A DNA stretch of 64,000 nt from an uncultured bacterium (GCA_963705915.1 OY970126.1:751893-815892); one strand, 5' to 3'; shown: positions 18,467 to 62,700, numbered from the stretch's first letter. The notes: generated by a model from the sequence alone, not told the origin. Translations and numbers: made by a program.

Positions 18467-19141
18467 ATGCAGAGTCCATTCAGAAAGCATAAAGGTGGTT
18501 TCTGGACGCCGGCGCGAAAGCGCTCAATGTATTTGGGGATCGTGCTGCTTGTGCTTGCCGTTGTCGTGCAGCTCACGCTTGGTCCGTATTCGTCGCGGGA
18601 GGCGATGGGTGCAGCGCCAGCGAGCGATATTTTTCTCGACAATCTTCCGGTTGTGAACCTAACCTTCGTTATCGTGCTTTGGGCGATCGCCGTATGGGTG
18701 CTTGCGTGGTGGCTGCTTGTGACGAACCCCAAGCGGCTCATATTCGGAACGAAAGCGATTGCGCTCTATATAATCTGTCGTGCATTTTTTGTGAGTCTCA
18801 CCCACATCGGGCCGTATCCGATGCAATATTCACCGGGTCCGGACAATGTCGGCTTTAAGCTCTATCAATTATTCACGTTCCAGGGAAATTATTTTTTCTC
18901 CGGGCACACCGGCTTTCCATTCCTCATCGCCCTCCTGTTTTGGGATGAAAAACTTTGGCGTCGTTTCTTCTTGTTTCTCACTGCCTTCTTTGGGTTAGCC
19001 GTACTCCTCGCCCACGTGCACTATTCGATTGATGTTTTTGCCGCGCCCTTCATTGTGTATGGCACATTCGTTATAACGGCAAGGATTTTCCGGGAAGATT
19101 ATGCGTTATTGCCGGGCGAAAGGCCCGGCCTTCCTGCGTGA
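18467..19141 (+). CDS. PAP2_C / sphingomyelin-synthase-like membrane protein
   Basis: Multiple TM helices; SGHT motif (FFSGHTGF) and HYxxDV motif (HVHYSIDVFAAPFIVY) match the SMS/IPC-synthase D3/D4 motifs. Confidence 0.5.
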   Translation: MQSPFRKHKGGFWTPARKRSMYLGIVLLVLAVVVQLTLGPYSSREAMGAAPASDIFLDNLPVVNLTFVIVLWAIAVWVLAWWLLVTNPKRLIFGTKAIALYIICRAFFVSLTHIGPYPMQYSPGPDNVGFKLYQLFTFQGNYFFSGHTGFPFLIALLFWDEKLWRRFFLFLTAFFGLAVLLAHVHYSIDVFAAPFIVYGTFVITARIFREDYALLPGERPGLPA

Positions 19142-19181
19142 GTGCTTGCCGCAGATCGTCTCGCGCGATATCATTATCCTC

Positions 19182-19949
19182 ATGGAGCACGACGAACATA
19201 CCGAAGAACGGGCAGCCGAGACGAATGCGGAGCCAAAAAAAGATCGATTTTTACCCATCAGCATTTTGATTGCCGCAGTGGTCATTGGCGGCTCGGTTCT
19301 CTTTGCAAGCCTCTACCACCCTGCCGCACAATCAACTGCCGGAACGGGCGGGGATAGCGGTGCGACTTCCACGGCGACGCTCACGCCGGCGCAGATTATG
19401 ACGCTCGGTCCGCGCGATGCAATTCTCGGCAGCCCGAATGCGCCGGTGACCATGATCGAATACGGCGACTACCAGTGTCCGTTCTGCGGCATGTTCTTCT
19501 CGCAAACCGAACCGGAGATTGTCCAAAACTACGTGAACACCGGCAAGGTGAAAATGGTATTCCGCAACTTCCCGTTCCTCGGTCCGGAATCGACGGCAGC
19601 GGCGGAAGCTGCGGAATGTGCCGAAGATCAGAACAAACTTTGGGTTTATCACGACGCTCTCTATCAAGCAAAGGTGAATGACGTCGCCAGGGGTGGGAGC
19701 GAGGACGATGGCTACTTCACGAACGCGCTATTCCTCTCGCTTGCCCAAAAATTGGATTTGGATATGCCGACATTCACCAACTGCGTGGATAACAATCTTG
19801 ACTCAAGCACCGTGGCGACCGACGTCACAAATGCGAGCGCCGCCGGCGTGAATTCAACGCCAACATTCTTCATCAACGGAACCGAAGTTTCCGGTGCAGA
19901 GCCATACGCAACGTTCTCGCAGGTGATCGACGCAGCGCTCAAGAGCTGA
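19182..19949 (+). CDS. DsbA-family thiol:disulfide oxidoreductase with N-terminal membrane anchor
   Basis: CPFC active site (YGDYQCPFCGMF) in a thioredoxin fold; TM segment ISILIAAVVIGGSVLFASL; start chosen at the internal Met. Confidence 0.7.
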   Translation: MEHDEHTEERAAETNAEPKKDRFLPISILIAAVVIGGSVLFASLYHPAAQSTAGTGGDSGATSTATLTPAQIMTLGPRDAILGSPNAPVTMIEYGDYQCPFCGMFFSQTEPEIVQNYVNTGKVKMVFRNFPFLGPESTAAAEAAECAEDQNKLWVYHDALYQAKVNDVARGGSEDDGYFTNALFLSLAQKLDLDMPTFTNCVDNNLDSSTVATDVTNASAAGVNSTPTFFINGTEVSGAEPYATFSQVIDAALKS

Positions 19950-19977
19950 CCGAGGTTCCCGCCGTATTTACGTGGGC

Positions 19978-20017
19978 TTGACATATAAGCATATACGCAT
20001 ATAATGATGATATGCGT
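19978..20017 (+). promoter_or_regulatory. sigma70-like promoter (TTGACA-16-TATAAT) overlapped by an 8-7-8 inverted repeat (ACGCATAT-N7-ATATGCGT); candidate ArsR autoregulatory operator
   Basis: TTGACA 19978-19983, TATAAT 20000-20005, inverted repeat 19995-20017 overlapping the -10 and the start codon of the ArsR gene. Confidence 0.5.
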
Positions 20018-20314
20018 GATAATTGCAAAGAAATTGAACGGTTCGGCAAGGGCATTGGCAACGCTTCGCGGTATCGCATCGTCCAAGCCTTGCTCAAAGG
20101 GGAAAAGACGGTCGGCGAGCTCGTAAAGATCGCCAAACTCAGCCAGCCGGCGGTTTCCCAGCATTTGAAAACCCTCAAGGCGTGTAACTTAGTGGTTGAC
20201 GAACGGCGGGGTCAAGAAGTTTTTTATTCTGTAAACGGAGAATACTTACTTGAACTGCTCGCACGCCTGTCGAGCGATGCGAGGCCGGCAAAGGTAGCCG
20301 GTAAAAATAAATAA
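20012..20314 (+). CDS. ArsR/SmtB-family metalloregulatory transcriptional repressor
   Basis: 100 aa winged-HTH; ..LSQPAVSQHLK.L......V...R.G.EV.Y signature. Confidence 0.8.
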   Translation: MRDNCKEIERFGKGIGNASRYRIVQALLKGEKTVGELVKIAKLSQPAVSQHLKTLKACNLVVDERRGQEVFYSVNGEYLLELLARLSSDARPAKVAGKNK

Positions 20315-20320
20315 CATACC

Positions 20321-20905
20321 ATGATCACTATAAAAGTAATTATCGGGAGCACGCGCCCGGGGCGCTTCAGCGAAAAACCGGCGCAATGGATTTTTGAAGA
20401 AGCCAAAAAACTTTCGGATACGAACGTTGAACTTCTCGACCTTCGTGATTACCCGATGCCATTTTTCGATGAAGCGATATCGCCAAGCGCAAAGAAGGAA
20501 CCGTTTGCAAATCCAGCAGTTGCAGCGTGGACCAAGAAGATCGCGGAAGGGGACGCTTTTATTGTCGTCACGCCTGAATACAACCATGGGCCGTCAGCAG
20601 TGCTCAAAAACGCCATCGATTATGTTGGTCCGGAATGGAACAAGAAGCCGATTGGCTATGTGGGGTATGGCAGCGTGCTTGGCGGCCGCGCCATCGAAAT
20701 GTTGCGCCTTTCGGCCGTCGAATTGCAGATGGCGCCGATCCGGCAGGGGATTTTTATTCCGATCGCCGTCTATCAAGCGGTTTCAAAGGAACCAACGCCC
20801 GTGAAGCCTGAGTTCTTTGAACCGTTGGCAGCAGTAAAAGATATGTTCCTTGCGCAGCTTATGTGGTGGGCGAAGGCGCTCAAAACGGCGCGGGATGCGG
20901 GGTAG
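20321..20905 (+). CDS. NADPH-dependent FMN reductase family flavoprotein (ArsH/FMN_red-like)
   Basis: Flavodoxin-like: KVIIGSTRPGRFSEK...VTPEYNHGPSAVLKNAIDY; 7-nt gap after the ArsR gene. Confidence 0.7.
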   Translation: MITIKVIIGSTRPGRFSEKPAQWIFEEAKKLSDTNVELLDLRDYPMPFFDEAISPSAKKEPFANPAVAAWTKKIAEGDAFIVVTPEYNHGPSAVLKNAIDYVGPEWNKKPIGYVGYGSVLGGRAIEMLRLSAVELQMAPIRQGIFIPIAVYQAVSKEPTPVKPEFFEPLAAVKDMFLAQLMWWAKALKTARDAG

Positions 20906-20940
20906 ATGTCGGATTGATTTGGCCATGGCTCCCGCGTAGA

Positions 20941-21156
20941 ATGACGTATATGGCCAAATCGTGGACGTTATTCGCCGTCGGTGTCTGGGTTCTCATCTCG
21001 CCGTGGCTTCTCGGGTTCGCTGACATTTCAATCATGAAGTGGAGCAATCTGATCTGCGGCACGATGCTCATCGTGATCACGGTCTGGGATCTCTTCGGCG
21101 AAAGGTCGGTTGTCGAAGGTTCTCGCGAGGGCACATCAACCGAAAAAAGCAAATAA
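20941..21156 (+). CDS. SPW-repeat small membrane protein
   Basis: Two hydrophobic helices, each ending in an S-P-W / W-D motif (LISPWLLGF; ITVWDLFG); start uncertain (20941 or 20950). Confidence 0.45.
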   Translation: MTYMAKSWTLFAVGVWVLISPWLLGFADISIMKWSNLICGTMLIVITVWDLFGERSVVEGSREGTSTEKSK

Positions 21157-21181
21157 CATTTAATATATTTTAAACAAAACT

Positions 21182-21433
21182 ATGGCAACAGCACAGCACA
21201 AAGTGACCATCTACAGCACGCCGACATGCGTGTACTGCAAAATGGCAAAAGAATTTTTTGCGAAGAACGGTGTTTCATATGAGGAGTACAATGTGGCTTC
21301 GGATATGAAAGCGCGCGAAGCGATGGTTGAAAAATCGCAGCAGTTGGGCGTTCCGGTTATCGAGGTCGATGACAATATTATTATTGGCTTCGATCAGAAG
21401 ACCTTGGAACACGTTCTTGAGCTCAAGAAATAA
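21182..21433 (+). CDS. glutaredoxin-like protein (NrdH/Grx family)
   Basis: 83 aa, CVYC redox motif near the N-terminus, thioredoxin-fold pattern. Confidence 0.75.
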   Translation: MATAQHKVTIYSTPTCVYCKMAKEFFAKNGVSYEEYNVASDMKAREAMVEKSQQLGVPVIEVDDNIIIGFDQKTLEHVLELKK

Positions 21434-21460
21434 GACATGAGGAAGCATACGCTTTAATTC

Positions 21461-22396
21461 ATGACTTATGACCTTGTCATCATCGGCGGTGGACCCGGCG
21501 GAGTTGCCGCGGGCGTTTACGCTGCGCGCAAAAAAATGAAGACCGTTTTGATCACGGATAGTTTTGGCGGACAGTCGCTTAATTCTGCAGGGATCGAAAA
21601 CTGGATTGGCACCAAAAATATTTCCGGCTTCGATTTGGCGAAAGCGCTCGAAGAACATGTGCGTGCCCAGCCAGAAATAGAAATCATCGCGCCCGATCTC
21701 GCTCAAAAAATAGAAAAGAAAGACCTCGGTATCCCCGACGGTGGGTTTTTGGTTACCACGCAGGGCGGCAAAACATTTGAAACGAAATACGTTTTGATCA
21801 CCGCTGGCAGCCGCCGTAAACGCCTCGGCGTTCCGGGCGAGGACGCCTTCGACGGCAAGGGCGTGGTTTTTTGCACGACATGCGACGCGCCTTTGTTCGG
21901 AGGGAAGACCGTTGCGGTTGTGGGGGGCGGCAATTCGGCGCTCGAGAGCGTTCTCGACCTCATTCCCTACGCCTCAAAAATTTACCTCATCGTCCGCTCC
22001 GATGTTTTAAGGGGCGATCCCGTTTCTCAGGAAAAAGTGAAGAGCCATCCGCAGGTCCAGATTTTATGGAACACCACCATCGAGGAGATCCGCGGCGACA
22101 AATTCGTGACCGGCGTCCGCTACAAGAATGCGCAAACCGGCGAAGTGAAAGAACTCGCGCTCGACGGCGTTTTTGTTGAGGTTGGCCTCACGCCGAACTC
22201 CGATTTTGCAAAAGGTTTGCTCGAGATCGAGCAATATGGCCACATCCATGTTGACCACCAAACCCAGGCAACGTCTTGTCCGGGCATTTGGGCGGCGGGA
22301 GATGTGACCGACGGCCTCTACCAGCAAAACAACATCTCGGTGGGCGATTCCATCAAGGCAGTTTTGAATATCTACGACAAGGTTAAAAAATCATAA
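21461..22396 (+). CDS. trxB: thioredoxin-disulfide reductase
   Basis: GGGPGG FAD motif, CTTCDAPLF redox-active CxxC, second GGGNSA NADPH motif; 311 aa. Confidence 0.85.
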   Translation: MTYDLVIIGGGPGGVAAGVYAARKKMKTVLITDSFGGQSLNSAGIENWIGTKNISGFDLAKALEEHVRAQPEIEIIAPDLAQKIEKKDLGIPDGGFLVTTQGGKTFETKYVLITAGSRRKRLGVPGEDAFDGKGVVFCTTCDAPLFGGKTVAVVGGGNSALESVLDLIPYASKIYLIVRSDVLRGDPVSQEKVKSHPQVQILWNTTIEEIRGDKFVTGVRYKNAQTGEVKELALDGVFVEVGLTPNSDFAKGLLEIEQYGHIHVDHQTQATSCPGIWAAGDVTDGLYQQNNISVGDSIKAVLNIYDKVKKS

Positions 22397-31858: not shown

Positions 31859-32296
31859 ATGGCACGTGATGTATTTAAAACAATGCTCAGAAAAAGCGGC
31901 TATAAAGCAACCCCATCGCGGCTCGCGATTTTGGCAGTTTTTAAGGCCTCAAAACGACCGATGAGCGTGCAGGGCATCCTGGGTGAGTTGCCAAAAAATA
32001 TTGACCAAGCTACGGTGTATCGCACAATTAATGCGCTGAAGAAAAAAGGGATCATCAGGCAGATCGACCTGCGTCACAATCATGCCCATTATGAGCTCGC
32101 GAACATCGCCGAGCATCATCACCTCATCTGTCTCCACTGCGGAAAGATCGAGGACGTGCATCATTGCGGCATCGAAGCGATGGAGAGCGCCGTACTTAAG
32201 AGCTCAAAGCATTTTGCGGAAATACGACAACATGCGTTGGAATTTTATGGCATCTGTACGTCGTGCGCCAAAATAGGCAGCATTGGCGCTCGGTAG
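31859..32296 (+). CDS. Fur-family transcriptional regulator (Fur/Zur/PerR)
   Basis: 145 aa; winged-helix N-terminus, HHH/HxH metal sites (HHHLICLHCGKIEDVHHC), C-terminal CxxC. Confidence 0.85.
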   Translation: MARDVFKTMLRKSGYKATPSRLAILAVFKASKRPMSVQGILGELPKNIDQATVYRTINALKKKGIIRQIDLRHNHAHYELANIAEHHHLICLHCGKIEDVHHCGIEAMESAVLKSSKHFAEIRQHALEFYGICTSCAKIGSIGAR

Positions 32297-35492: not shown

Positions 35493-35972
35493 ATGGAAGC
35501 CGCTATTAAAAACCGAATTCCGGACTCGGTGGTACCGTTTCCGGACGGTCTATGGAATCAAGTTAAATATGTCTTTTGGAAAGCGATAACGCCCGGATAT
35601 CTTTGGGGATTGCATCTTCTTTTACGAATGCGGATTTTGCGTCACGATTTTCGCCAGAATTTTGTTTTGGGTAACCTCGCGCCCGGAAAATCGATGGATG
35701 CGTTCGTGCAATACCTCCACAGCAGAGGCTTTTATAATCATTTCATCGCATGGGAAGACCCGGATCAATTTATCAGCCTTCGCAAACTGGAGGGCTTTGA
35801 ATGGCAGTATCACCTCCGTGTCTTTCGCGACGGCGAAGTGCGGGGCCATTACGAATACACGCCGGAATCGCATCCGCGATTGCACCTCAAAGAAATTGGG
35901 TTTGAACCCCGCCGCGAAGTTTTTCTCAGCCTTCTTGGTGATTGGATTGTGCCGAGTTTGAAGGAAAAATAA
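35493..35972 (+). CDS. hypothetical protein
   Basis: 159 aa ORF with reasonable codon usage; no recognisable motif. Confidence 0.35.
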   Translation: MEAAIKNRIPDSVVPFPDGLWNQVKYVFWKAITPGYLWGLHLLLRMRILRHDFRQNFVLGNLAPGKSMDAFVQYLHSRGFYNHFIAWEDPDQFISLRKLEGFEWQYHLRVFRDGEVRGHYEYTPESHPRLHLKEIGFEPRREVFLSLLGDWIVPSLKEK

Positions 35973-37209
35973 GACCCCAAACCAGCGCGGCCACGTTGCG
36001 TGCCGGGCCTTTGAGCGGATAGTGATGGAGATCGATGAAGGGCAGGCTGTTGCATTCGATGACGCCGCAGCGCTGCTCTCGCCACGAGCGGCCCATGTCG
36101 AGAATCATAAAATCAATGCCGACGAGCGGGTCGTCGAGCGTGCGCGCGATTTTCAAAAATAATTCCTGATTATCGGGATGAATATGTTCCATTTCCGTCG
36201 TCGACGCTCCGAATGAGCGGCTTACTTTTGGATGGAGGATAATCATTGTATGTTTCGGAGGGATGGCATTGAGCGTGATGTGCTCAGCGGCAAGCATTGA
36301 TGGATCGACTTCGAGCTTGTGGAAGATCGGCCCTTCGCGCAACGGATTTTTATTTTCTTCATCGATGAGTTCTTGGAGCGTATGTTTGCCGTCGCCTATC
36401 ACATGCGGCGGCTCGCGGCGCATCACGCCTGCGACTTTGCCGCCGACGAGCGTCACGCGGAACACAAACCCCGGCAATTCTTCCTCGACAACGACGCGCG
36501 GCGAAATTTCTTTTGCTTTCAAAAATGCGGCGCGCAGGTCTTCGATCGTCGTGATATGCATATACGTATGGCGACTGCGCGATCCGAGCGCGGGCTTCAC
36601 GATGACGGCGTCCGGTGTGTCGCTCGCCGCAGTCCCTTGGTGAGTACTTCCCTCGCGGCCACGTTGCTCCATTAAAATTTTATGAAATAGCGTTTCAGCC
36701 TGATCGGTCGTTTTTGCTGAACCGCCACGGGGGACCGGGATGCCAGCTCGAGTAAACTTTTCGAGCATAACGCCTTTGTCGTCCATCCAATCTTGCGCCC
36801 GGTCGTTTGCAAGGCGTGGTCGGGGTAAGCCGTCAAACACGCGGGTGTCGCCGTTATAGCTTGCGAAGAATATGTTTCTTGGAAGTCCGAATGGTCGGAA
36901 TTCCCGCATCACTATGCCGCGTCGTTCGGCTTCTTCCCAAAGGACACGCGTGCGGTCGGTGTTCTTTTCATCAGGCTTTTTCATGACCGTGCCCAGCCTG
37001 AGCGCGGCGCAGAGACCGAATATAAAGGGCGCCATTCGTCCCGGTTTTACGAATGCGACGGCCGGGCGCACGCTGTTCCAGGTTATTTCGAGCGGTGCGA
37101 GAAGATAGCCAAAAAATGTATCCATGCGGACATTCCATCGCTCGACGGCGTGCGAAACCGTTGCCGGTCCGCAATCGGGGCAGGTGATGGCTCGCGAGGC
37201 GGCTTCCAT
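35926..37209 (-). CDS. ATP-grasp domain protein with N-terminal zinc-ribbon (CPDC)
   Basis: ATP-grasp core (VIVKPALGSRSRH..., EEELPG.VFRV..VGGKV); 427 aa. Confidence 0.6.
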   Translation of the reverse strand: MEAASRAITCPDCGPATVSHAVERWNVRMDTFFGYLLAPLEITWNSVRPAVAFVKPGRMAPFIFGLCAALRLGTVMKKPDEKNTDRTRVLWEEAERRGIVMREFRPFGLPRNIFFASYNGDTRVFDGLPRPRLANDRAQDWMDDKGVMLEKFTRAGIPVPRGGSAKTTDQAETLFHKILMEQRGREGSTHQGTAASDTPDAVIVKPALGSRSRHTYMHITTIEDLRAAFLKAKEISPRVVVEEELPGFVFRVTLVGGKVAGVMRREPPHVIGDGKHTLQELIDEENKNPLREGPIFHKLEVDPSMLAAEHITLNAIPPKHTMIILHPKVSRSFGASTTEMEHIHPDNQELFLKIARTLDDPLVGIDFMILDMGRSWREQRCGVIECNSLPFIDLHHYPLKGPARNVAALVWGLIFPSNSAQSNHQEG

Positions 37210-37236: not shown

Positions 37237-38805
37237 TTATGCGAATCCCGGGAAGAAATCGGTTTTGATTTGCGTGCGAGGGACGCCGAGGCCGCTCAAA
37301 GTTTTTTTGAATTCGCTCACCATGCCGTGCGTGCCGGAAATATAAAATGTCCGCTCGCGAAAATCCGGAACCGTTTTTTCGATAAGCGAAATATCGATAC
37401 GCCCGCGATGTCCGTTGTGCGGCGGGGCGGACTCTCCTGGGTCGGTTACGGCATACATCGTGCGCAGCCCCCATTTCGACTCCGCCTCGTCAAAAATTTC
37501 TTGGTATGCAACTTCGGCGCTGCTGCGATTCGAATAAAAGAGCACTGCGTCGCGATGTTCGCCGCTATCCGAGATATATTTCACCATGCTGCGGATTGGC
37601 GTGATGCCGATACCGCCGGCGATGAGGACAAGTTTTTTATTCGGATCGCGTGGGAGTGTGAAATCTCCGGCGAGTTGTCCTGCAACGATCGATTCGCCCG
37701 GCTTCAAATGCATGAGGCCGAACTTGAAGCTGCTCGATTTTTCATAAAATTTTACACCGAGATGGATATCGGGTTCCGTTGGCGACGAAGCAATCGTAAA
37801 ATATCGCCGGTTGCCGCGGCCGTCGGTTTTGGGATGGTTGAGCGTCCATTCGAGATACTGGCCCGGGCGGAATTGCATCGGCTTGTCGCTTTTGAAAATA
37901 AAATCATCCATATCTTTGCCTACCTCTTGCTTGCTTTGCATGGTGAGGACATATTTTCGTTTGGGGCTCACGAGGTATGAGAAAACATTCCCCGTCACAA
38001 GCGCGAGTTCCGGAATGGAATAAATCGATCCCACGTGGACATAGGGAGAATAGAGCAAGCCGACGAAAGCTCCGTAGAGCATCCGGAGCGTCCGCGTCGG
38101 CGGCGTGGTCACAGGCTCCGTGAGCATTATGAATCCAAAGAAGAACACGGGGGTGTGGAGTGCAAGGCGCGATAGCGTTCCCCAAGGATCGAGTGTCGGT
38201 GCGAGAAAGATGCAGCCGAGTGCTGCGGCACCAAAGAATGCCAGTACAAGATCGAAACGCTGGATTTTGCGCGTGATGAGGAGGCCTCCTATAAGTACGA
38301 AGGCGAGCATCGGTAGATTGCCACCAATCCACCAGCTTGCATAGTGATTGAGTGCAAGGCCGGTTATGACGACGGCAAAGGCCGCAGGATTGAAGATGTG
38401 CTTTTTGCCAATCGCTAAAATATATTTGGACGCCATGGCGATCACGGACGCCCAAACTAAAAGCAAAACTCCGCCAGCCGACGTCGGCATCACGGGGGTT
38501 ATGATGAGCGCGAGGATAAGCGCCGTGATGTAGGCCGACTCGGCATTGGGTTGTGCTTTGAAAGCTTTTGCAAAAATGCCGTTCACCGCCCAGCAGGCGA
38601 CAATCAGGAAAAGCGTCGAGAATGCGATCGAGATCGGATTATAGGGGAGTATACCGAAGAGTCCGAAGACGCCTGCTATGACAAGTAGAATTTCGAGCGT
38701 GTACAAGAGCAGCTTGTACATCGTTATTCTGTTCAGGAGCCGATCAATCCAGGTAATCATATTTCTCGAGGCCGCTCGTTGTGGTTGCGACTCTATTATT
38801 GTCAA
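37237..38805 (-). CDS. membrane oxidoreductase: NqrB/RnfD-like polytopic domain (HIFNPA motif) fused to an FNR-like FAD/NAD(P)-binding reductase
   Basis: 8-10 TM helices then RYFTIASSP (FAD RxYS motif) and LIAGGIGITPIRSM (NAD(P) motif); true start probably the internal Met near 38721. Confidence 0.6.
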   Translation of the reverse strand: MTIIESQPQRAASRNMITWIDRLLNRITMYKLLLYTLEILLVIAGVFGLFGILPYNPISIAFSTLFLIVACWAVNGIFAKAFKAQPNAESAYITALILALIITPVMPTSAGGVLLLVWASVIAMASKYILAIGKKHIFNPAAFAVVITGLALNHYASWWIGGNLPMLAFVLIGGLLITRKIQRFDLVLAFFGAAALGCIFLAPTLDPWGTLSRLALHTPVFFFGFIMLTEPVTTPPTRTLRMLYGAFVGLLYSPYVHVGSIYSIPELALVTGNVFSYLVSPKRKYVLTMQSKQEVGKDMDDFIFKSDKPMQFRPGQYLEWTLNHPKTDGRGNRRYFTIASSPTEPDIHLGVKFYEKSSSFKFGLMHLKPGESIVAGQLAGDFTLPRDPNKKLVLIAGGIGITPIRSMVKYISDSGEHRDAVLFYSNRSSAEVAYQEIFDEAESKWGLRTMYAVTDPGESAPPHNGHRGRIDISLIEKTVPDFRERTFYISGTHGMVSEFKKTLSGLGVPRTQIKTDFFPGFA

Positions 38806-39508
38806 TCATATATCCTTCGAAGCCCGGGAGGGCTTCTATGAATTGTATGGCGTTTTTCCCCATCGCGAATGCCGCCGTTGCAAAACGGTCGGCTTCGTGA
38901 ATGTTGGGGCCGATCACCGTGAGACTCACGATCTCCTCGATCGGTTTTCCGTTCCGCGGATTATAAATATGGAGCCCGCGGATGTAGGTGCCCGACGTTG
39001 CAACGCCCGGCACGGCGCCCGCAGCATTTGGCGTGAGGCTGAGCACTTTTACATTCTCGGCTGCGTTCCATGGATTTTTTATGCCGACGGTCCATGGCTC
39101 GCCTTCATCATTTTTGCCGTGCGGTTGAACATCGCCACCGGCGTCAACATAAAAATTTTTGAAACCGCGTTTCAATATCAGTTGCGCCGCGTTCCAGATT
39201 GCCCAGCCTTTCACGAGGCCCGAAGGATCGTACCCGCCATTCGGCGTTTTGATATCAAAAAAACCGCCCGTCTCACGCCGGGTTTCGTCTGCCATCGTGA
39301 ATATCAACCTCATCTCTTCGCTCCATGCTGATTCTTTGAGGCGCCCCTCATTGATCGCCGTGATCTCACTCGTCTTTTTATACGTGCTAAATTTTTCGTC
39401 GATATGGTTGAAGTAGTCGTATATTTCGTCGAATATCGCATCGTTCGCATTTGAATCGACAACAGCAACCGTTACCGGCATGCCCATGAGGACGCGAGTT
39501 TGTTTCAT
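38744..39508 (-). CDS. apbE: FAD:protein FMN transferase (ApbE family)
   Basis: 254 aa; ApbE motifs (..FDIKTPNGGYDPSGLVKGWA.., YVDAGGD). Confidence 0.8.
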   Translation of the reverse strand: MKQTRVLMGMPVTVAVVDSNANDAIFDEIYDYFNHIDEKFSTYKKTSEITAINEGRLKESAWSEEMRLIFTMADETRRETGGFFDIKTPNGGYDPSGLVKGWAIWNAAQLILKRGFKNFYVDAGGDVQPHGKNDEGEPWTVGIKNPWNAAENVKVLSLTPNAAGAVPGVATSGTYIRGLHIYNPRNGKPIEEIVSLTVIGPNIHEADRFATAAFAMGKNAIQFIEALPGFEGYMIDNNRVATTTSGLEKYDYLD

Positions 39509-39546
39509 GGATGATAATACGCGCAGGCGCGTGCTTCGCCTCGAGG

Positions 39547-40089
39547 CTAGTTTTTTGCCATGGCGAGCGCCGCGGCGAGTGATTGCTGGAAGGCTTGGCT
39601 GTCTTGCGTTGCTCCTGAGACAATATTTACATTCGCGCTTTGCGCGGCGATCGCTTCCTGCTTGAGTTGTGGGAGAGCCATGTTGCTCACATCGGTGGTG
39701 TGTCCTGGCGCGTCGGGGTATTGCAGGAAGGTTACGTCGGTAAGCGCTCCGCCACTCACGACAGCTTCCACTTGGATGGTGCCATAGAACGCGTCTTCTG
39801 CCGGGCCGGTGTAGCTGCCATCCTTATACATGCCAGTCGTGCCGGTGCCAGTACCACTTGTGCCGCTTCCGCTACCAGTGCCGGAGCTACCGGACGATCC
39901 GCCGGTTGAGCTTGAACTTGGCCCTGTGCCTGGAGGAAGGATCGTGGTGTTTGTCGCGTCGTTCGATCCGGTTGATGTTGTGTTCTGATCCGGGGCGGCC
40001 GTTCCGTTGCCATTGCGACTGAAGATGACGTACCCAACAAAAATAGCCACGACGGCTATTGCAAGGAGATATTTCCAGATGGACTTCAT
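39547..40089 (-). CDS. FMN-binding domain protein (flavinylation target), membrane-anchored with Ser/Gly/Thr-rich linker
   Basis: N-terminal TM anchor, low-complexity linker, FMN_bind domain with YKDGSYTG and the SGAT flavinylation motif (NIVSGATQDS). Confidence 0.75.
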   Translation of the reverse strand: MKSIWKYLLAIAVVAIFVGYVIFSRNGNGTAAPDQNTTSTGSNDATNTTILPPGTGPSSSSTGGSSGSSGTGSGSGTSGTGTGTTGMYKDGSYTGPAEDAFYGTIQVEAVVSGGALTDVTFLQYPDAPGHTTDVSNMALPQLKQEAIAAQSANVNIVSGATQDSQAFQQSLAAALAMAKN

Positions 40090-40183
40090 ATATATGGAGA
40101 GATATACGACGAAATGCGCTTATTGGTTGCGTATGAGAAGTATTATACCATGCTTCGCAGAGGAGAGGTATAATGGAACGACT

Positions 40184-42145
40184 ATGCACATTGATCCAAA
40201 AGAACTCGGTGTCTCGGCAGATGCCGCGAATAATTTTTTCCGCTACGTGAACGGATCGTGGATCGAGAAAAATGAGATACCCGCCAACGAATCGCTATGG
40301 GGATCGTTTTCGATATTGCGCGTTCAGGTGGAGGAACAACTCAAAAAAATTTTTGATGACTTTGATAAGCCGGTCGCGGACTCCGTTCCGCTCGATGCGA
40401 ATACTCAAAAAGTGAAAGATTTTTATGCATCAGGGATGGATGTCGAAAAACTGAATGCATTGCGCGACCGTCCGCTCGCTGAACTCTTCGCTGCTGTCGA
40501 GGGCATTACAACACTCGATGATCTTGCGAACGTTGTTGGCAAGCTTCATCGTTGCGGCGTGAATGTTCTCTGGTCTTCGGCCGCGTGGCCAGACGCCAAG
40601 AAAAGCGACGTCATGGCGCTCTATATCGGACAAGGCGGCCTCGGTCTTCCTGATCGCGACTACTACCTGAAGAGCGACGAAGCGAGCCTTGCGATACAGA
40701 AAAAATATGCTGATTATGCAACCGGCATCATTTCGAAGACTTCGCTCGTGGCAGCGCGTGAGCCGGCAACTGTTGTGCATACCATCATCGAGATAGAAAA
40801 GACGCTCGCCGAAGCGTCGATGACGCGGGTTGAATTGCGCGATGTTGAAAGGCAATACAACAAAATGACGCAAGTCGAACTCGCCAAGCTAGCGCCGCAG
40901 GTCAACTGGGATGCTTACTATACAGCGGCCGGCATAGCCACGCCGGAATATGTGATTGTCTGCCAGCCAAAGTTCTTCGAAGCGGTCGGCAAACAGTTTG
41001 AAACGACGCCGCTCGAATCGCTCAAATCATATATGCGCTGGCACATCGTGAACGACCTCGCAAATTTTTTGAGCGAAGACTTCGCAACGATGTCGTTCGA
41101 TTTTTATGGACGGACATTCGGTGGCGCGACAGAGATGAAGCCGCGCTGGCGCCGCGTGCTCAATGTGGTGAACACCATGCTCGACGAAGCTGTCGGACAA
41201 ATCTATGTGAAAAACCACTTTAGCGAGAGCGCCAAAGAGCGTATCAAAAACCTCGTTGAGCATCTCACTACAGCATACAAGACTCGCATTGAACGTCTCG
41301 CGTGGATGAGCGTCGAGACGAAAGAGAAAGCGCTCGCAAAGCTTGCCGCCGTGAAGCGCAAGCTCGGTTATCCTGACCGCTGGAAAGACATCGATGCCCT
41401 GCTTATCACCCGGGATGCCTATGCTGAAAATTATATGCGTGGGCATGCTTTTGAATTTGATCGGCAGATGAAGAAGATTGGCAAGCCCGTCGATCCTTTT
41501 GAGTGGTATATGTCGCCGCAGACGGTGAATGCATGTTATGAGCCGCTTCGCAATGAAATTCTTTTTCCCGCCGCGATTCTCCAGCCGCCATTCTTTTATC
41601 CGGATGGCGATGACGGCGTTAACTTCGGCGGCATTGGCACGGTGATCGGACATGAACTTACCCATGGGTTTGATGATCAGGGCGCGTTATTCGATCCGCA
41701 CGGAAATCTTCTCAATTGGTGGACGAAAGAAGACAAAGAACGATTCGACCGTGAAGCGGAGCGCCTTGCTGGGCAATTCGATCGCTACGAGCCGCTGCCC
41801 GGACTCCATGTGAATGGTAAGCTCACGCTCGGAGAAAATATTGCTGACCTTGGAGGATTGCTCATCGCATACGACGGCCTCACGCTTGCCATGAAAGAGC
41901 GGCAGACGGGCCCTATTGATGGCCTCACGGCGTATGAGCGATTCTTTATTAATTACGCCATCACCGAACGCTCAAAAAGCCGCGAAGAATATCTGCGCCT
42001 ACAAGTGCACGTGGATCCCCATTCGCCATCTGAATATCGAGTGAACGGTCCGCTTTCAAATATGACTGAATTCTATGAGGCGTTCCATGTGAAGGCCCAC
42101 GATGCGTTGTGGCGTGAGCCTGATGATCGCGTGAAGATTTGGTAA
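40184..42145 (+). CDS. M13-family zinc metallopeptidase (PepO/neprilysin-like endopeptidase)
   Basis: HELTHGFDDQG (HExxH), NAYY and GENIAD motifs; start chosen at the Met at 40184 with AGGAGAGG upstream. Confidence 0.85.
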   Translation: MHIDPKELGVSADAANNFFRYVNGSWIEKNEIPANESLWGSFSILRVQVEEQLKKIFDDFDKPVADSVPLDANTQKVKDFYASGMDVEKLNALRDRPLAELFAAVEGITTLDDLANVVGKLHRCGVNVLWSSAAWPDAKKSDVMALYIGQGGLGLPDRDYYLKSDEASLAIQKKYADYATGIISKTSLVAAREPATVVHTIIEIEKTLAEASMTRVELRDVERQYNKMTQVELAKLAPQVNWDAYYTAAGIATPEYVIVCQPKFFEAVGKQFETTPLESLKSYMRWHIVNDLANFLSEDFATMSFDFYGRTFGGATEMKPRWRRVLNVVNTMLDEAVGQIYVKNHFSESAKERIKNLVEHLTTAYKTRIERLAWMSVETKEKALAKLAAVKRKLGYPDRWKDIDALLITRDAYAENYMRGHAFEFDRQMKKIGKPVDPFEWYMSPQTVNACYEPLRNEILFPAAILQPPFFYPDGDDGVNFGGIGTVIGHELTHGFDDQGALFDPHGNLLNWWTKEDKERFDREAERLAGQFDRYEPLPGLHVNGKLTLGENIADLGGLLIAYDGLTLAMKERQTGPIDGLTAYERFFINYAITERSKSREEYLRLQVHVDPHSPSEYRVNGPLSNMTEFYEAFHVKAHDALWREPDDRVKIW

Positions 42146-43443: not shown

Positions 43444-43962
43444 ATGGATGACTACGATGAAATTATGCGGAACGAAATGCTGGATGCCATCGAAAATTTG
43501 GCGCTCATGGTGAATCGCGAATTTATAGCGATCCGCGAAGATATCCATGCTCAAGCGCAGCAATTTAGGGATGATATGCGTGCCCAGGGGGAACAGCTCA
43601 GGTTCGAAATGAAGGAACAGGGCGAGCAATTGAGGCTCGAGATGAAGGAGCAGAGCGAGCAATCGAGGCTGGAAATGAAAGAGCAGGGCGAGCAAATTCG
43701 TATTGAGATGAGAGAAGGCAACGAGCAGCTTAGACTAGAAATGAAAGGGCAATTAGAAAACGTGCAAAACGGAATCCATGCCGAGATACGTGGAATGCGG
43801 GGCGAGCTTCGCGATGAAATCCAGCAAACCCGTGAAGATTTGCACGATGAAGTTGAAGATTTGCGGCAAGAAACGCGCGCCGGTTTCGCCGCGATAACAG
43901 GTATTATTACGAACCACGAATACCGACTCGAGCGAGTCGAGAAAAAGACAGGTATTTCATAG
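43444..43962 (+). CDS. coiled-coil protein with tandem 11-aa repeats (EMKEQGEQLRL)
   Basis: About 6 in-frame 33-bp tandem repeats (43573-43770) encoding E/Q/R-rich heptad-like units. Confidence 0.5.
   Translation: MDDYDEIMRNEMLDAIENLALMVNREFIAIREDIHAQAQQFRDDMRAQGEQLRFEMKEQGEQLRLEMKEQSEQSRLEMKEQGEQIRIEMREGNEQLRLEMKGQLENVQNGIHAEIRGMRGELRDEIQQTREDLHDEVEDLRQETRAGFAAITGIITNHEYRLERVEKKTGIS
43573..43770 (+). repeat. 33-bp tandem repeat, about 6 copies (GAAATGAAGGAACAGGGCGAGCAATTGAGGCTC-like)
   Basis: Direct tandem copies with 70-90% identity inside the coiled-coil protein gene. Confidence 0.7.
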
Positions 43963-53303: not shown

Positions 53304-54287
53304 ATGGATAATGAACGAATTCGTTTTCCCCGCGGTGGACAAAAAAGATTTTTGGATCAGGCAATAGCGCGTGCTTCCGGAGTGGATAAACTCGCGCAAT
53401 TTTTATCGGTTTCATCCCGAACCGTGCGGGATTGGAGACGAGAGAAATTTCTTATGGCTTATGAGGCGGCATCGATAACGGCGTTGATGTACGAACTTGA
53501 GATGCCTGATGGGGTGAGGCGCGAAACGGCTTACTGGAATGTTTCTAACGCTGGCAGAACAGGTGGCCCCGCCTCATATAAGAAGCAAAAAGGAATTATT
53601 GGCGACCCTTTATTGAGAAAGCAGAGATGGCATGAATGGTGGGAGTTAAACAAGCACCGCAGTCATTTTCCATGCCATCAATTGCCTTTCCATGAGCCTG
53701 ACCTATCAGTTCTCTTGGCTGAATTTATAGGTATCATGATGGGGGATGGAGGCATGACTGCCAGACAATTCACAATAAGCCTGCATCATATAGATGATCT
53801 TGCTTACAGTAAATTTGTTACTGCTTTGATTGAGCAGCTTTTTCATATTGCTCCTTCAATTCGCCATATACCAAAAAATTCAGTGAATATAATAGTAGTT
53901 TCTCGAACGAAATTAATGCATTATTTGCATGGACTTGGATTGCCTCTTGGGAATAAAGTAAAACAAAATTTTACTATTCCCCAGTGGATACAAGAGAACG
54001 AAGAATTTATGGCTGGGTGCGTCCGTGGGCTCGTCGATACCGATGGAAGTATTTTCAATCATGAATATGCGTCGAATGGAAAGCAGTATTCATATAAGAA
54101 GCTTTCATTTTCATCCGCATCGCTGCCACTTCGAGAGGTCGTACAACTGTTTCTAGAAAATCATGGTTTTCATGCGCGTTTTACACGAGGTATAGAAATT
54201 CGTCTTGAAAGCAAAAAGGATATGGAACACTATATGAAGTTCATTGGCTCACATAATCCAAAGCACTTGAACAGATATTATAACTAG
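53304..54287 (+). CDS. free-standing double-motif LAGLIDADG homing endonuclease with N-terminal HTH region
   Basis: Two LAGLIDADG motifs (LAEFIGIMMGDGG and MAGCVRGLVDTDGS); 327 aa; lower-GC codon usage. Confidence 0.8.
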   Translation: MDNERIRFPRGGQKRFLDQAIARASGVDKLAQFLSVSSRTVRDWRREKFLMAYEAASITALMYELEMPDGVRRETAYWNVSNAGRTGGPASYKKQKGIIGDPLLRKQRWHEWWELNKHRSHFPCHQLPFHEPDLSVLLAEFIGIMMGDGGMTARQFTISLHHIDDLAYSKFVTALIEQLFHIAPSIRHIPKNSVNIIVVSRTKLMHYLHGLGLPLGNKVKQNFTIPQWIQENEEFMAGCVRGLVDTDGSIFNHEYASNGKQYSYKKLSFSSASLPLREVVQLFLENHGFHARFTRGIEIRLESKKDMEHYMKFIGSHNPKHLNRYYN

Positions 54288-59740: not shown

Positions 59741-62700
59741 ATGCATAAAGTTCTTTCTCCCCTCAGCGGAGATGCTAAGAAAGTGTTTGTTGTATTCTTT
59801 TTCGCAACTTTTGTCTCAGGAGTGTTTTATTTTGGTTTATCTACAAGGCAGGTCTTCGCCTCATCGTATGCCTATTACCGTTCTATCACGGTCACCTCGA
59901 CTTCTTCAATCGCCTCAGGAACGCTGACAAATTTTCCGATACTTGTATCGTCGACCTTGTCCTCATGGGAACCCGTGAGCGATGGGGGCAAGATACAGCA
60001 TCTCACGACAGCTCCGAACGGGGGACAAGAACCTGCTGATCTTGTCTTTGCAACATCTTCTGCGAACTGCGGCACAGCGAATCTCAATTTCGAAACGGAG
60101 TCTTATACTTCGAGCACTGGCGCATTGGTAGATTGGGTTAATGTTCCCACGATGGAGATGGGAACGGTCATTTATGCCTGCTATGGCAATACTTCAGTCG
60201 CAACCGATCAGTCTCATCCAAGTTCGACGTGGAATAGCAATTATGCAGCGGTATATCACCTCGGCGACAATCCTCCGACAACCATACACGATAGCACGAG
60301 CCACGGGGATAATCTCGGGGTTGGTGGAGGTTCTACCGCGCAGTTCGCAGGTGAGATAGATGGTGCCATCAATTTTCCGAACGCGAGCCAATATGGTGGT
60401 ATTTACGCAAGTAGTACTCAGGCATCCGGTGGAGGGACGGGGAATTTTACCATTTCCACATGGGTCAACTTCAATGCTTTCTTCTCAGCATACGACGGAT
60501 TAGGTGGGGCCATCTTTGAAGTAGCGTCAGGCACCTATCCTTATTACGAAAAAGCACTCGTTTTGACCGGCACATCTACGCCTCAAATTAGTTTTTATGT
60601 GGTTCCCTCTAGTGGAAGTGGGTTTACGATGAATAGTCCAGCCGCTGTCGCGACCGGCACGTGGTACTACCTCACAGGAACATTAAATGGCACGACGGCT
60701 TCGTTATACGTGAATGGCGTTTTTGCCACATCCACTACTATATCCGGTTCTTTTATGGATTCGCCTATCTGCATGGTTCCCTACAACGTTTGCGGTAGCG
60801 GCAATTATACTCGTTCTGTTGATGCCGCCGTAGATGAAAGTCGTGTTTCAAATATTGCCCTTTCACCCTCATGGATTCTCACGGAATACAACAACCAATC
60901 AAGCCCCTCAACGTTCTATACCATGGGAAATGAAACGATCAACAACGCCGGACCTCCGTCGGTCTCCTGGATTTCCCCCGCTAACAACGCTTCAGTATCT
61001 TCCACGATCACGCTTACCGCATCGTCGACCGACAACACGCTCGTTTCAAGCACTGCCTTCTACGAGGGGACTTATGGTTCAAGTCTTGCTTCGAGCACTC
61101 TTATCGGAGCTACAAGCACCGCGAGCGGAACGCTCTATTCCGTGCCTTGGAACACAGGCTTGGTCGCGAACGGCTCGACGACTCTCTGGGCTCTTGCAAC
61201 CGATATCGCAAACAACACTTCTAGCGCGTCAACCACGGTGAATGTGACGAACACGCTCGCGATTACGAACACCACGGCGACGACCATCACGTACTCAGGC
61301 GCCACGATCACCTGGATGACGAATCTCGCGGCGTCCTCGACGGTAAACTACGGCCTGACCTCTGCCTACGGCTCTTCGACGGGGAGCTCGACTCTCGTCA
61401 CGAATCACTCTATAGCACTCATTGGTTTGGCGGCGTCGACCACCTATCATTATCAAGCTCTTTCGACCACCGGAGGAGGAAGTATAGCGACCTCTACTGA
61501 TGCAACGTTCACGACGGGCATCTCTCCCGGAACGCCGGGCACTCCATCCTTTTCTTCGGTCGGTTCAAGCACGCTCACTGTTTCGTGGACGTCCGCTTCG
61601 TCAACGAATTTCTATAGTATCGATCGCGCTACTTCCAGCCAGATCTATGCGCAAATAGCGACGACCACATTCCTTTCTTATAATGATTCGGGCCTCACGG
61701 GGAACACCCTCTATTTTTATGAGATCACCGGTGTAAATTCGAGCGGTGATGGCCCCGCGAGTGCGAGCTCTAGCGAGCTTACGCTTCCTGCGGCACCCGG
61801 AGCGCCCACCTATACGGATATCGGATCTTCTACCATTACGGTGAATTGGACTGCTCCCGCGGGAGCCGCTGCTTTTTATGAATTGGAAAGAGCTACCTCG
61901 TCAGCCGTTTTCACCCAAATAGGCACGACAACATCTCTTTTCTATGAGGACGCAGGACTCGCCACAGGCACTACGTATCTCTATCGTCTAAGAGCGGCAA
62001 ATGCGACGGGTAGCGGAGATTACAGCGCTTCATCCTCGGTAACGACGGTTTCCGGCGTGGGTCCCTATATGGCCCGCACTGATACCAACGCGCAACCCTA
62101 TCCATCGTCCATTCCTTGTCCGGCTTCATCCGCGCAATCTCAACCCGATGGTTCGATGGGATGCGCGAACGGAGGGGCGTTGTATGGATCAAATTACTAT
62201 TTCACCCCGTCCGATTTTCCTACGACGCCGATCTTGCGGGTCACGGACGTCAGTACGCCGACTACAAACAGCGGAAAGAGTTTTTTTACCGATTGCGGCG
62301 GTTCGGCAGAGACCAACATCATGGATTCATCCGACAATATTTTCTATATTTGCGATAGCGGTTCCGCGATTCGGATCATGACATTCAATTCGAGCACGCC
62401 AAGCGTTTCGCTCCGTTACAATTCATACATATTGCCCGATTGCGGCAGCGGCACCGGCAACATAGGGAATCTGTTTTTCAGTTTCACGCGTCCTCTCATA
62501 GGATATGCATCCTGTTTCAATAGCAGCGGCGATCCCATAATCGCGCAATTGAATTTTACGAGTACGAGTACCGGCCCAACGGTTGCGAATGGCGGAATCA
62601 CCACGGTCGTCGATTTGTCCAACTGCGTAGGCGCTCTCGCCGGAGTTGGGCCATCTGCATATCTCGACGATGTAAGCGTGAGTGCCGACGATCAAACGTT

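Follow-up and report, generated by a model that had tools for sequence, protein, structure and literature searches.

The closest described counterpart of the locus examined here is the NQR/RNF-like system, which Méheust et al. (2021; eLife, PMC8238504) defined as a PF03116 domain fused to a PF00175 domain within an apbE/FMN_bind gene cluster. They reported the fusion in 127 genomes, primarily from Actinobacteria and the candidate phyla radiation (CPR), and proposed a one-way electron flow from reduced nicotinamide adenine dinucleotide (phosphate), NAD(P)H, to the outside of the cell. Huang et al. [quoted passage not shown] They suggested that the covalent flavin mononucleotide (FMN) of the small subunit samples the non-covalent flavin pocket of the membrane subunit. 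Here, we analyze a three-gene minus-strand locus at positions 37,237 to 40,089 of a 64,000-nucleotide stretch of DNA from an uncultured bacterium (GCA_963705915.1, OY970126.1:751893-815892; the whole stretch is hereafter termed the window). The locus encodes an FMN_bind protein, an ApbE-family flavin adenine dinucleotide (FAD):protein FMN transferase, and a fusion of an RnfD/NqrB-like membrane domain with a ferredoxin-NADP reductase (FNR)-like module. The source genome is that of a Paceibacteria-like member of the Patescibacteria/CPR, a tiny cell of the symbiotic type.

The locus very probably belongs to the published NQR/RNF-like class. PF03116 and PF00175 occur in one protein, FMN_bind and ApbE genes lie immediately upstream on the same strand, and the flavinylation threonine of the membrane subunit is not conserved, the loop that carries it having been deleted. 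A sequence-only reading of the same stretch had described three consecutive minus-strand genes encoding a membrane-anchored FMN_bind protein with an SGAT motif behind a Ser/Gly/Thr linker, an ApbE-family transferase, and an HIFNPA-bearing, NqrB/RnfD-like domain fused to an FNR-like module, with no other Nqr/Rnf subunit in the window. It had read these genes as a minimal NAD(P)H-to-flavin-to-outside conduit that would be unusual if confirmed. That reading was right in substance: all three open reading frames (ORFs) were found at the positions given, and the predicted conduit agrees with every test run and is the same as the published model. In the Pfam searches that it had proposed, FMN_bind, ApbE, NAD_binding_1, and NQR2_RnfD_RnfE scored above their cutoffs and FAD_binding_6 just below. 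Its claim of novelty did not survive, since the same fusion and electron flow had been published by Méheust et al. (2021) and modeled by Huang et al. (2024). The class is bioinformatically defined, and this locus is one more member.

The membrane domain of the fusion protein

Sequence searches gave a marginal signal for the membrane domain. Pfam NQR2_RnfD_RnfE (PF03116) matched residues 164–260 of the 522-residue ORF with an E-value of 9.5e-7 and 28.9 bits (cutoff 27.7), and NCBIfam returned very weak matches of residues 166–252 to RsxD and NqrB. A phmmer search of residues 1–270 against the PDB returned no match, and a 15-sequence family profile retrieved RnfD of A. vinelandii (8ahx_D, E 0.0026), the match spanning the helices at the C-terminal end and taking in the TDPVT-type motif. 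The membrane domain was also modeled by itself with AlphaFold2 (predicted local distance difference test score, pLDDT, 78), and the model was compared with the PDB by Foldseek. The best 13 matches were all RnfD or NqrB with a probability of 1.00; template modeling (TM) scores ranged from 0.65 to 0.69 for the RnfD chains 7zc6_D, 8ahx_D, 8rbq_D, and 9eri_D and from 0.50 to 0.58 for NqrB. The matches that followed were urea and ammonium channels with E-values above 0.5. On the strength of this model, the membrane domain is assigned the RnfD/NqrB fold.

The motifs of the fusion family also correspond to those of RnfD. When the family was aligned with MAFFT to the RnfD sequences recovered from the PDB, the conserved segment ES.YITALILA aligned with D.SALLTG, KKHIFNPAA with GQNPFNPAM or GQNIVNPAL, and FIMLTEPVTTP with FFIATDPVTSP; the conserved K112 was likewise aligned. 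The HIFNPA motif, from which the relationship had originally been suspected, was thus a sound lead, as FNPA and the further motifs line up with genuine RnfD sequences. A local hidden Markov model pairing of a WW in the family with the PWW of RnfD was discarded as spurious on the basis of the global alignment. Six charged or polar residues placed inside the membrane helices (E74, K112, H121, N124, K165, and E215) are at least 95% conserved down to approximately 40% identity.

A departure from RnfD lies in the extracytoplasmic loop that bears the flavinylated TGAT or TTAT motif in A. vinelandii and C. tetanomorphum. This loop is deleted in the fusion protein and replaced by a short loop with a conserved SWW. 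Among 216 full-length relatives, a [ST]G[AS][TS] motif occurs within the first 280 residues of three sequences only. With the loop deleted and the motif absent, the membrane domain cannot hold FMN covalently at the canonical position.

The reductase domain

The C-terminal domain of the fusion protein is an FNR-like reductase. Pfam NAD_binding_1 (PF00175) matched residues 394–498 of the 522-residue ORF (E 8.2e-14), and FAD_binding_6 reached 19.9 bits against a cutoff of 21.1. NCBIfam partial matches in the C-terminal half were to the reductase modules of flavohemoprotein, GbcB, PaaE, and NqrF, and the PDB sequence matches were flavohemoglobin and NqrF. The AlphaFold2 model of the full-length fusion (pLDDT 85.6, predicted TM score 0.81) retrieved flavohemoglobin reductase modules, the FAD/NADH domain of NqrF, Fre, plant-type FNRs, and the SpNOX dehydrogenase, with E-values from 5e-17 to 1e-12; all of the 50 matches listed were of the FNR type, for which reason the membrane domain was given a model of its own. 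Prediction puts the FNR domain in the cytoplasm, together with the two ends of the membrane domain.

Two details of this domain had been read differently in the sequence-only reading, which gave the fusion 522 residues and an RxYS FAD motif together with GGxGxxP. The last of these is present as GGIGITP, the FAD motif reads RYFT, and the protein most likely has 507 residues, as discussed below with the gene boundaries. Of 120 close relatives, 104 have YSNR after the second strand of the NAD(P) domain, and S/A-N-R/K variants appear farther out. A Ser-Arg pair placed here is suggestive of NADPH use in FNR enzymes, and by analogy the YSNR motif suggests that the reductase would prefer NADPH.

Distribution and conserved neighborhood

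For each GTDB species, one genome was scanned by pattern and tblastn for relatives of the membrane domain, which yielded 585 encoding stretches; the locus counts given here and below refer to the best 80 of these. Nearly all of the 80 are labeled Patescibacteria/CPR, including Paceibacterota and Adler-, Kaiser-, Uhr-, Peregrini-, Doudna-, Davies-, Lipton-, Yanofsky-, and Nomurabacteria, and a few of the labels are probably wrong. In this respect, QIJM01000443.1, JBDTNB010000029.1, and several 'Candidatus Saccharibacteria' binchicken records carry close relatives of the module (53–66% identity) on contigs labeled Paraglaciecola arctica, Chloroflexota, or Saccharibacteria, for which mis-binning or loose labeling is probable. 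An exhaustive HMMER search of 1.84 billion representatives returned relatives in 1,649 clusters (50% identity) at E <= 1e-3, most of them approximately 500 residues long, and in 356 at E <= 1e-30.

The three genes travel together. An FMN_bind homolog is encoded in 73 of the 80 loci and an ApbE in 68, and approximately 60 have the genes closely spaced on a single strand in the order FMN_bind, ApbE, fusion. In about 12 loci, the FMN_bind gene directly precedes the fusion gene and ApbE is located elsewhere, and several loci that lack FMN_bind or ApbE are cut at contig ends. All-against-all clustering of every ORF within 7 kb of the 80 loci revealed no further conserved partner gene. The next most frequent clusters, gyrB (20 loci), an ATP-grasp protein (17), and an M13 peptidase (13), reflect residual synteny among close relatives. 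No Rnf or Nqr family other than those described was detected by Pfam among 64 ORFs of the window, in agreement with the sequence-only reading, and none was conserved within 7 kb of the 80 loci. Such strong conservation of the module argues for an autonomous, selected unit.

Automatic annotation represents this family poorly. In the precomputed annotation of many full-length homologs, the PF03116 match is absent, 'weak', or 'faint', and the names assigned vary among 'glycine betaine catabolism B', 'ferredoxin-NADP reductase', and 'RnfABCDGE subunit D'. Consequently, surveys that require PF03116 under-count the family, and the automatic names are unreliable.

The FMN_bind subunit

The first gene product matched Pfam FMN_bind (E 9.1e-8, 33.1 bits, cutoff 22), and its best PDB sequence match was 8p2a, a compact FMN-binding domain (E 4.7e-11). 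The domain follows an N-terminal hydrophobic helix and a linker of 69 residues, 47 of which are Gly, Ser, or Thr. The SGAT motif reported previously is present within VNIVSGAT, and Thr161 is presumed from this motif to be the flavinylated residue. A V[DN]xVSGA[TS]-type motif, with occasional variants, was found in all 73 FMN_bind partners of the related loci. A clear N-terminal hydrophobic helix, usually preceded by MKK, occurs in 63 of these partners, and the linker varies from approximately 30 to 200 residues. In 67 of the 73, Lys and Arg are in excess on the N-terminal side of the anchor helix; this excess of positive charge predicts an N-in, C-out topology, which would place the FMN_bind domain outside the membrane.

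ApbE and the missing export signal

The product of the second gene is identified by domain and motifs as an ApbE FAD:protein FMN transferase. It matched Pfam ApbE (PF02424) with an E-value of 5.9e-39 and 134.6 bits (cutoff 25.6), while the NCBIfam ApbE equivalog was matched partially (69.6 bits, cutoff 498). The motifs DPSG, GGD, TSGTY, HIYNP, and EADRF are retained, of which the last three align with TSGSY, HVIDP, and EADAW of E. coli ApbE (4xgw). Relative to that structure, approximately 50 internal residues are absent (query 87–92, chain 105–161).

The protein begins with MKQTRVLMGMP, which is the beginning of the ApbE fold, and no hydrophobic segment, signal peptide, lipobox, or membrane helix was found in it. 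Upstream of its start, the frame contains no ATG, GTG, or TTG codon and is not hydrophobic either. An N-terminal lipoprotein signal is typical of the ApbE family, although not universal in it. Across the related loci, signal peptide, lipobox, and membrane helix are likewise absent from all 68 ApbEs, nearly all of which begin with MK[EQ]TR..MGT. With respect to the filter for extracytosolic machinery used by Méheust et al. (2021), the FMN_bind protein of this locus is anchored by its N-terminal helix, and the ApbE has no signal, lipidation site, or anchor. In that survey, which was filtered on signal peptides, CPR were described as "strikingly underrepresented" for extracytosolic flavinylation (PMC8238504), and the leaderless ApbE may contribute to this result. 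The cytosolic ApbEs described so far have targets in the cytosol as well, such as the fumarate reductase of Klebsiella (review PMC12052999).

Gene layout and boundaries

The features of the module are collected in Table 1. Between the FMN_bind stop codon and the ApbE start lie 38 nt. For the fusion gene, the 120 best homologs are approximately 500–510 residues long, cover 97% of the 522-residue ORF, and all start with M-x-x-x-IDRLLN. Given these lengths and the shared beginning, the most likely start is the ATG at 38760, giving 507 residues, rather than the TTG at 38805. The fusion gene then overlaps the ApbE stop by 17 nt, which suggests translational coupling. Upstream of the module, an extended -10-like sequence read from the minus strand, TGGTATAAT (40142..40150), lies 52 nt before the FMN_bind ATG and may be the promoter of the operon. 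A consensus promoter scan of the intergenic region found no two-hexamer promoter and no enrichment over shuffles, and the combined promoter and terminator scan likewise found nothing enriched over shuffles.

Table 1. Positions of the module features within the window
Feature	Position	Strand	Context or evidence
FMN_bind subunit, 180 residues	39547..40089	-	Pfam FMN_bind
Signal-anchor helix, N-terminal, residues 7–23	40021..40071	-	Hydrophobic helix
Gly/Ser/Thr-rich linker, residues 24–92	39814..40020	-	FMN_bind subunit
Compact FMN_bind domain, residues 93–179	39553..39813	-	Pfam and PDB match
Putative flavinylation motif VNIVSGAT (SGAT, residues 158–161)	39607..39609 (Thr161 codon)	-	
ApbE-family FAD:protein FMN transferase, 254 residues, leaderless	38744..39508	-	Pfam ApbE
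Fusion protein, ORF of 522 residues	37237..38805	-	
RnfD/NqrB-like polytopic membrane domain, residues 1–270 of the 507-residue form	37951..38760	-	
HIFNPAA (in conserved KKHIFNPAA)	38380..38400	-	Membrane domain
Conserved SWW loop	38317..38349	-	Membrane domain
MLTEPVTTP	38101..38121	-	Membrane domain
FNR-like FAD/NAD(P)H reductase domain, residues 271–507	37240..37950	-	Fusion protein
RYFT, FAD motif	37795..37806	-	Reductase domain
GGIGITP	37597..37617	-	Reductase domain
YSNR	37525..37536	-	Reductase domain
Stop codon, after the aromatic C-terminus DFFPGFA	37237..37239	-	Reductase domain
Divergent intergenic region, 94 nt	40090..40183		Between FMN_bind gene and M13 peptidase gene

Other genes in the window

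The rest of the window has the ordinary content of a small genome, including gyrB, nusG, secE, IF-2, GroEL, and cell-envelope glycosylation genes. An ATP-grasp protein of 427 residues (35926..37209, minus strand) lies 27 nt downstream of the fusion gene; it has no Pfam match and partially matches the NCBIfam cyanophycin synthetase ATP-grasp region (E 3.3e-48, 164 bits, cutoff 850). It was considered as a fourth component of the module and rejected, as it is present in 17 of the 80 loci, all of them close relatives that share the gyrB and M13 synteny. On the other side, an M13 (neprilysin-type) metallopeptidase gene (40184..42145, plus strand) diverges from the module and is syntenic in 13 of the 80 loci. 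Its ORF as listed (start 40007, 712 residues) overlaps the FMN_bind gene; the internal MHIDPK and the shorter homologs of 526 and 645 residues in two related loci suggest the start at 40184.

A Fur-family regulator (31859..32296, plus strand) lies approximately 5 kb from the module and is also found near it in a close relative. A link to iron through this gene was set aside, because the neighborhood is common to close syntenic relatives only and the window contains no VIT1 gene. A redox cluster (19101..22396, plus strand) encodes a DsbA-like thioredoxin (19101..19949), an NADPH-dependent FMN reductase (20321..20905), and a thioredoxin-reductase-like flavoprotein (21461..22396). Furthermore, a protein of 172 residues (43444..43962, plus strand) with repeated QLR.EMKEQGEQ-type heptad-like units and a weak apolipoprotein/YtxH-like match is encoded between gyrB and the gene for a secreted protein of 376 residues without a Pfam match. 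A free-standing LAGLIDADG_3 homing-endonuclease-like protein (53304..54287, plus strand) has a similar gene near the module in one related locus. Finally, a surface-type protein of more than 1,420 residues (59741..64000, plus strand), which extends past the window, contains Laminin_G_3, Big_7, and three fn3 domains and resembles the adhesin-like giants typical of CPR.

Discussion

Taken together, we consider it probable, although far from certain, that the three-gene operon encodes a minimal conduit from NAD(P)H through flavins to the outside of the cell. ApbE would transfer FMN from FAD onto Thr161 of the FMN_bind subunit, as the motif and the chemistry of the family suggest. The cytoplasmic FNR-like domain would bind FAD and oxidize NAD(P)H, with NADPH favored by the YSNR motif, and electrons would traverse the membrane via the RnfD/NqrB-fold domain, which has lost the flavinylation loop and in which one or more non-covalent flavins would presumably be the carriers. 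They could then reach the covalent FMN of the FMN_bind domain, which the predicted topology tethers outside by its flexible Gly/Ser/Thr linker and which, following Huang et al. (2024), may dock at the conserved SWW loop. The reduced FMN would hand its electrons to an acceptor outside the cell that the cluster itself does not encode, with Fe(III), free flavins, quinones, oxygen, and a host-surface molecule as candidates. The net result would be a one-way NAD(P)H:extracellular-acceptor oxidoreductase through which a fermentative cell without a respiratory chain could re-oxidize NAD(P)H.

Several points weigh against this proposal. The cofactor content, electron donor, direction, and acceptor, as well as the intermediate cofactor site in the membrane domain, are all inferred, and the Pfam RnfD match barely exceeds its threshold. 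Close to the module, there is no gene for a terminal acceptor or reductase, and the literature searched contained neither an experimental study of any NQR/RNF-like member nor a further description of the class. A further difficulty is that the ApbE is leaderless here and in all 68 related loci that encode it, whereas prediction places its only evident substrate outside the cell, which leaves either the step of maturation or the topology prediction in doubt. Flavinylation before or during export, an inverted topology, and unconventional export are possible ways out. Under the first of these, FMN would be attached on the cytoplasmic side, the FMN-bearing C-terminal segment would then be threaded through the membrane, and the conduit would be the sole membrane redox device of the cell, perhaps ion-coupled or host-directed. 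This version would require no FAD exporter, and we regard it as possible but unlikely.

The missing export signal also bears on an alternative in which the flavin chemistry is wholly cytoplasmic or membrane-facing, with ApbE flavinylating the FMN_bind domain in the cytoplasm, the domain remaining on that side, and a membrane-soluble compound, such as a scavenged quinone, serving as the acceptor. NqrB carries a quinone site in Na+-NQR, cytosolic ApbEs with cytosolic targets exist, and the lack of a signal at all 68 loci fits this arrangement. Nevertheless, the charge distribution around the anchor helix predicts the opposite orientation in most FMN_bind partners, the homologous NqrC and RnfG domains are extracytoplasmic, and the loop that replaces the RnfD flavinylation loop, the expected docking site, is on the outer face by homology. 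Moreover, to our knowledge, CPR genomes generally lack quinone synthesis. This alternative therefore appears rather improbable.

The fold and conserved residues of the membrane domain could instead be taken as signs of a two-subunit, redox-driven ion pump, a 'mini-Nqr' that couples NAD(P)H oxidation to the export of Na+ or H+ and energizes the membrane in a cell without a respiratory chain. NqrB is implicated in the Na+ translocation of Na+-NQR, and the RnfD/NqrB fold is also that of urea and ammonium channels. The highly conserved E74, K112, H121, N124, K165, and E215 in the membrane helices would suit such a role, but flavin binding explains them equally well. Coupling in Nqr and Rnf further involves NqrD/E (RnfA/E) and large movements of NqrC/RnfG, and counterparts of NqrD/E are absent from the window and not conserved in the related loci, which makes a pump decidedly improbable. 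There is very little probability that the locus is left over from a complete Rnf or Nqr operon that was split or has decayed, with the remaining subunits elsewhere in the genome. The subunit scan of the source genome covers this window, which leaves room for such an explanation; against it, many CPR lineages share the FNR fusion, the loop deletion, and the order of the three genes (585 stretches; 1,649 clusters), and RnfA/B/C/E and NqrA/D/E/F are absent from the window, with none conserved near the related loci.

CPR/Patescibacteria are usually described as fermentative and without electron-transport chains. If the proposed conduit is real, it would offer CPR cells an outlet for reducing equivalents and perhaps a route for electrons to and from minerals or hosts. 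Because the NAD(P)H-to-outside idea has already been published as a bioinformatic prediction, the locus adds a well-documented CPR example and not a discovery. Its three genes nonetheless form a small set suited to expression, in which Thr161, the SWW loop, and YSNR are clear residues to mutate, and the locus poses a concrete puzzle, namely the route by which an ApbE with no leader would meet a substrate whose predicted location is extracellular.

Comparison with known systems

Rnf (RnfABCDGE) and Na+-NQR (NqrABCDEF) share the RnfD/NqrB fold and the FNPA and TDPVT-type motifs with the membrane domain described here. The FMN_bind subunit resembles RnfG/NqrC, the FNR module resembles the FAD/NADH domain of NqrF, and ApbE is the maturation enzyme. 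The locus was nevertheless rejected as a bona fide Rnf or Na+-NQR complex, since no six-subunit operon was found in the window and the covalent FMN site on the D/B subunit is absent. Counterparts of two of the six subunits only are present, and the Fe-S subunits (RnfB/C, the ferredoxin domain of NqrF, and NqrD/E) are missing. Reductase and membrane domain are directly fused in one protein, the D/B-like domain has no covalent FMN site, and the flow is presumed to be one-way outward instead of semicircular, with any ion pumping being hypothetical.

Flavin-based extracellular electron transfer in Listeria (Ndh2, EetA/B, DmkA/B, PplA, FmnB) likewise employs an ApbE-family enzyme, a surface-tethered FMN_bind protein, outside acceptors, and a cytosolic NADH donor. 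In Pfam scans of the window ORFs, no member of the Ndh2, EetA/EetB, DmkA/B, or PplA families was detected. In contrast to the Listeria system, the present locus has no Ndh2, quinone, EetA/B, or PplA-type lipoprotein, and transfer would proceed via the RnfD-like domain and not a quinone pool. FmnB is a secreted lipoprotein, whereas the ApbE here is leaderless. The PF00175 fusions of the NOX/MsrQ-like and PepSY-like types, such as SpNOX, follow the same design, in which a polytopic electron-transfer membrane domain is followed by a dehydrogenase domain of the FNR type at the C-terminus; the FNR part of the fusion model matches the corresponding domain of SpNOX. The membrane domains of those proteins are di-heme cytochromes, while the domain considered here has the predicted RnfD fold and aligns with the flavoproteins RnfD and NqrB; His121 is the only histidine kept in at least 95% of the wider fusion family.

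The NQR/RNF-like system remains the nearest relative, the comparison with its Ktedonobacter exemplar resting on the published description. The CPR clade adds some detail to the existing descriptions: neither VIT1 nor any other partner gene is conserved, all of the ApbEs are trimmed and have no leader, a long linker of low complexity is present, and the flavinylated loop has been deleted outright instead of being substituted. In architecture, the locus and the NQR/RNF-like system are identical, and nothing between them differs in kind.

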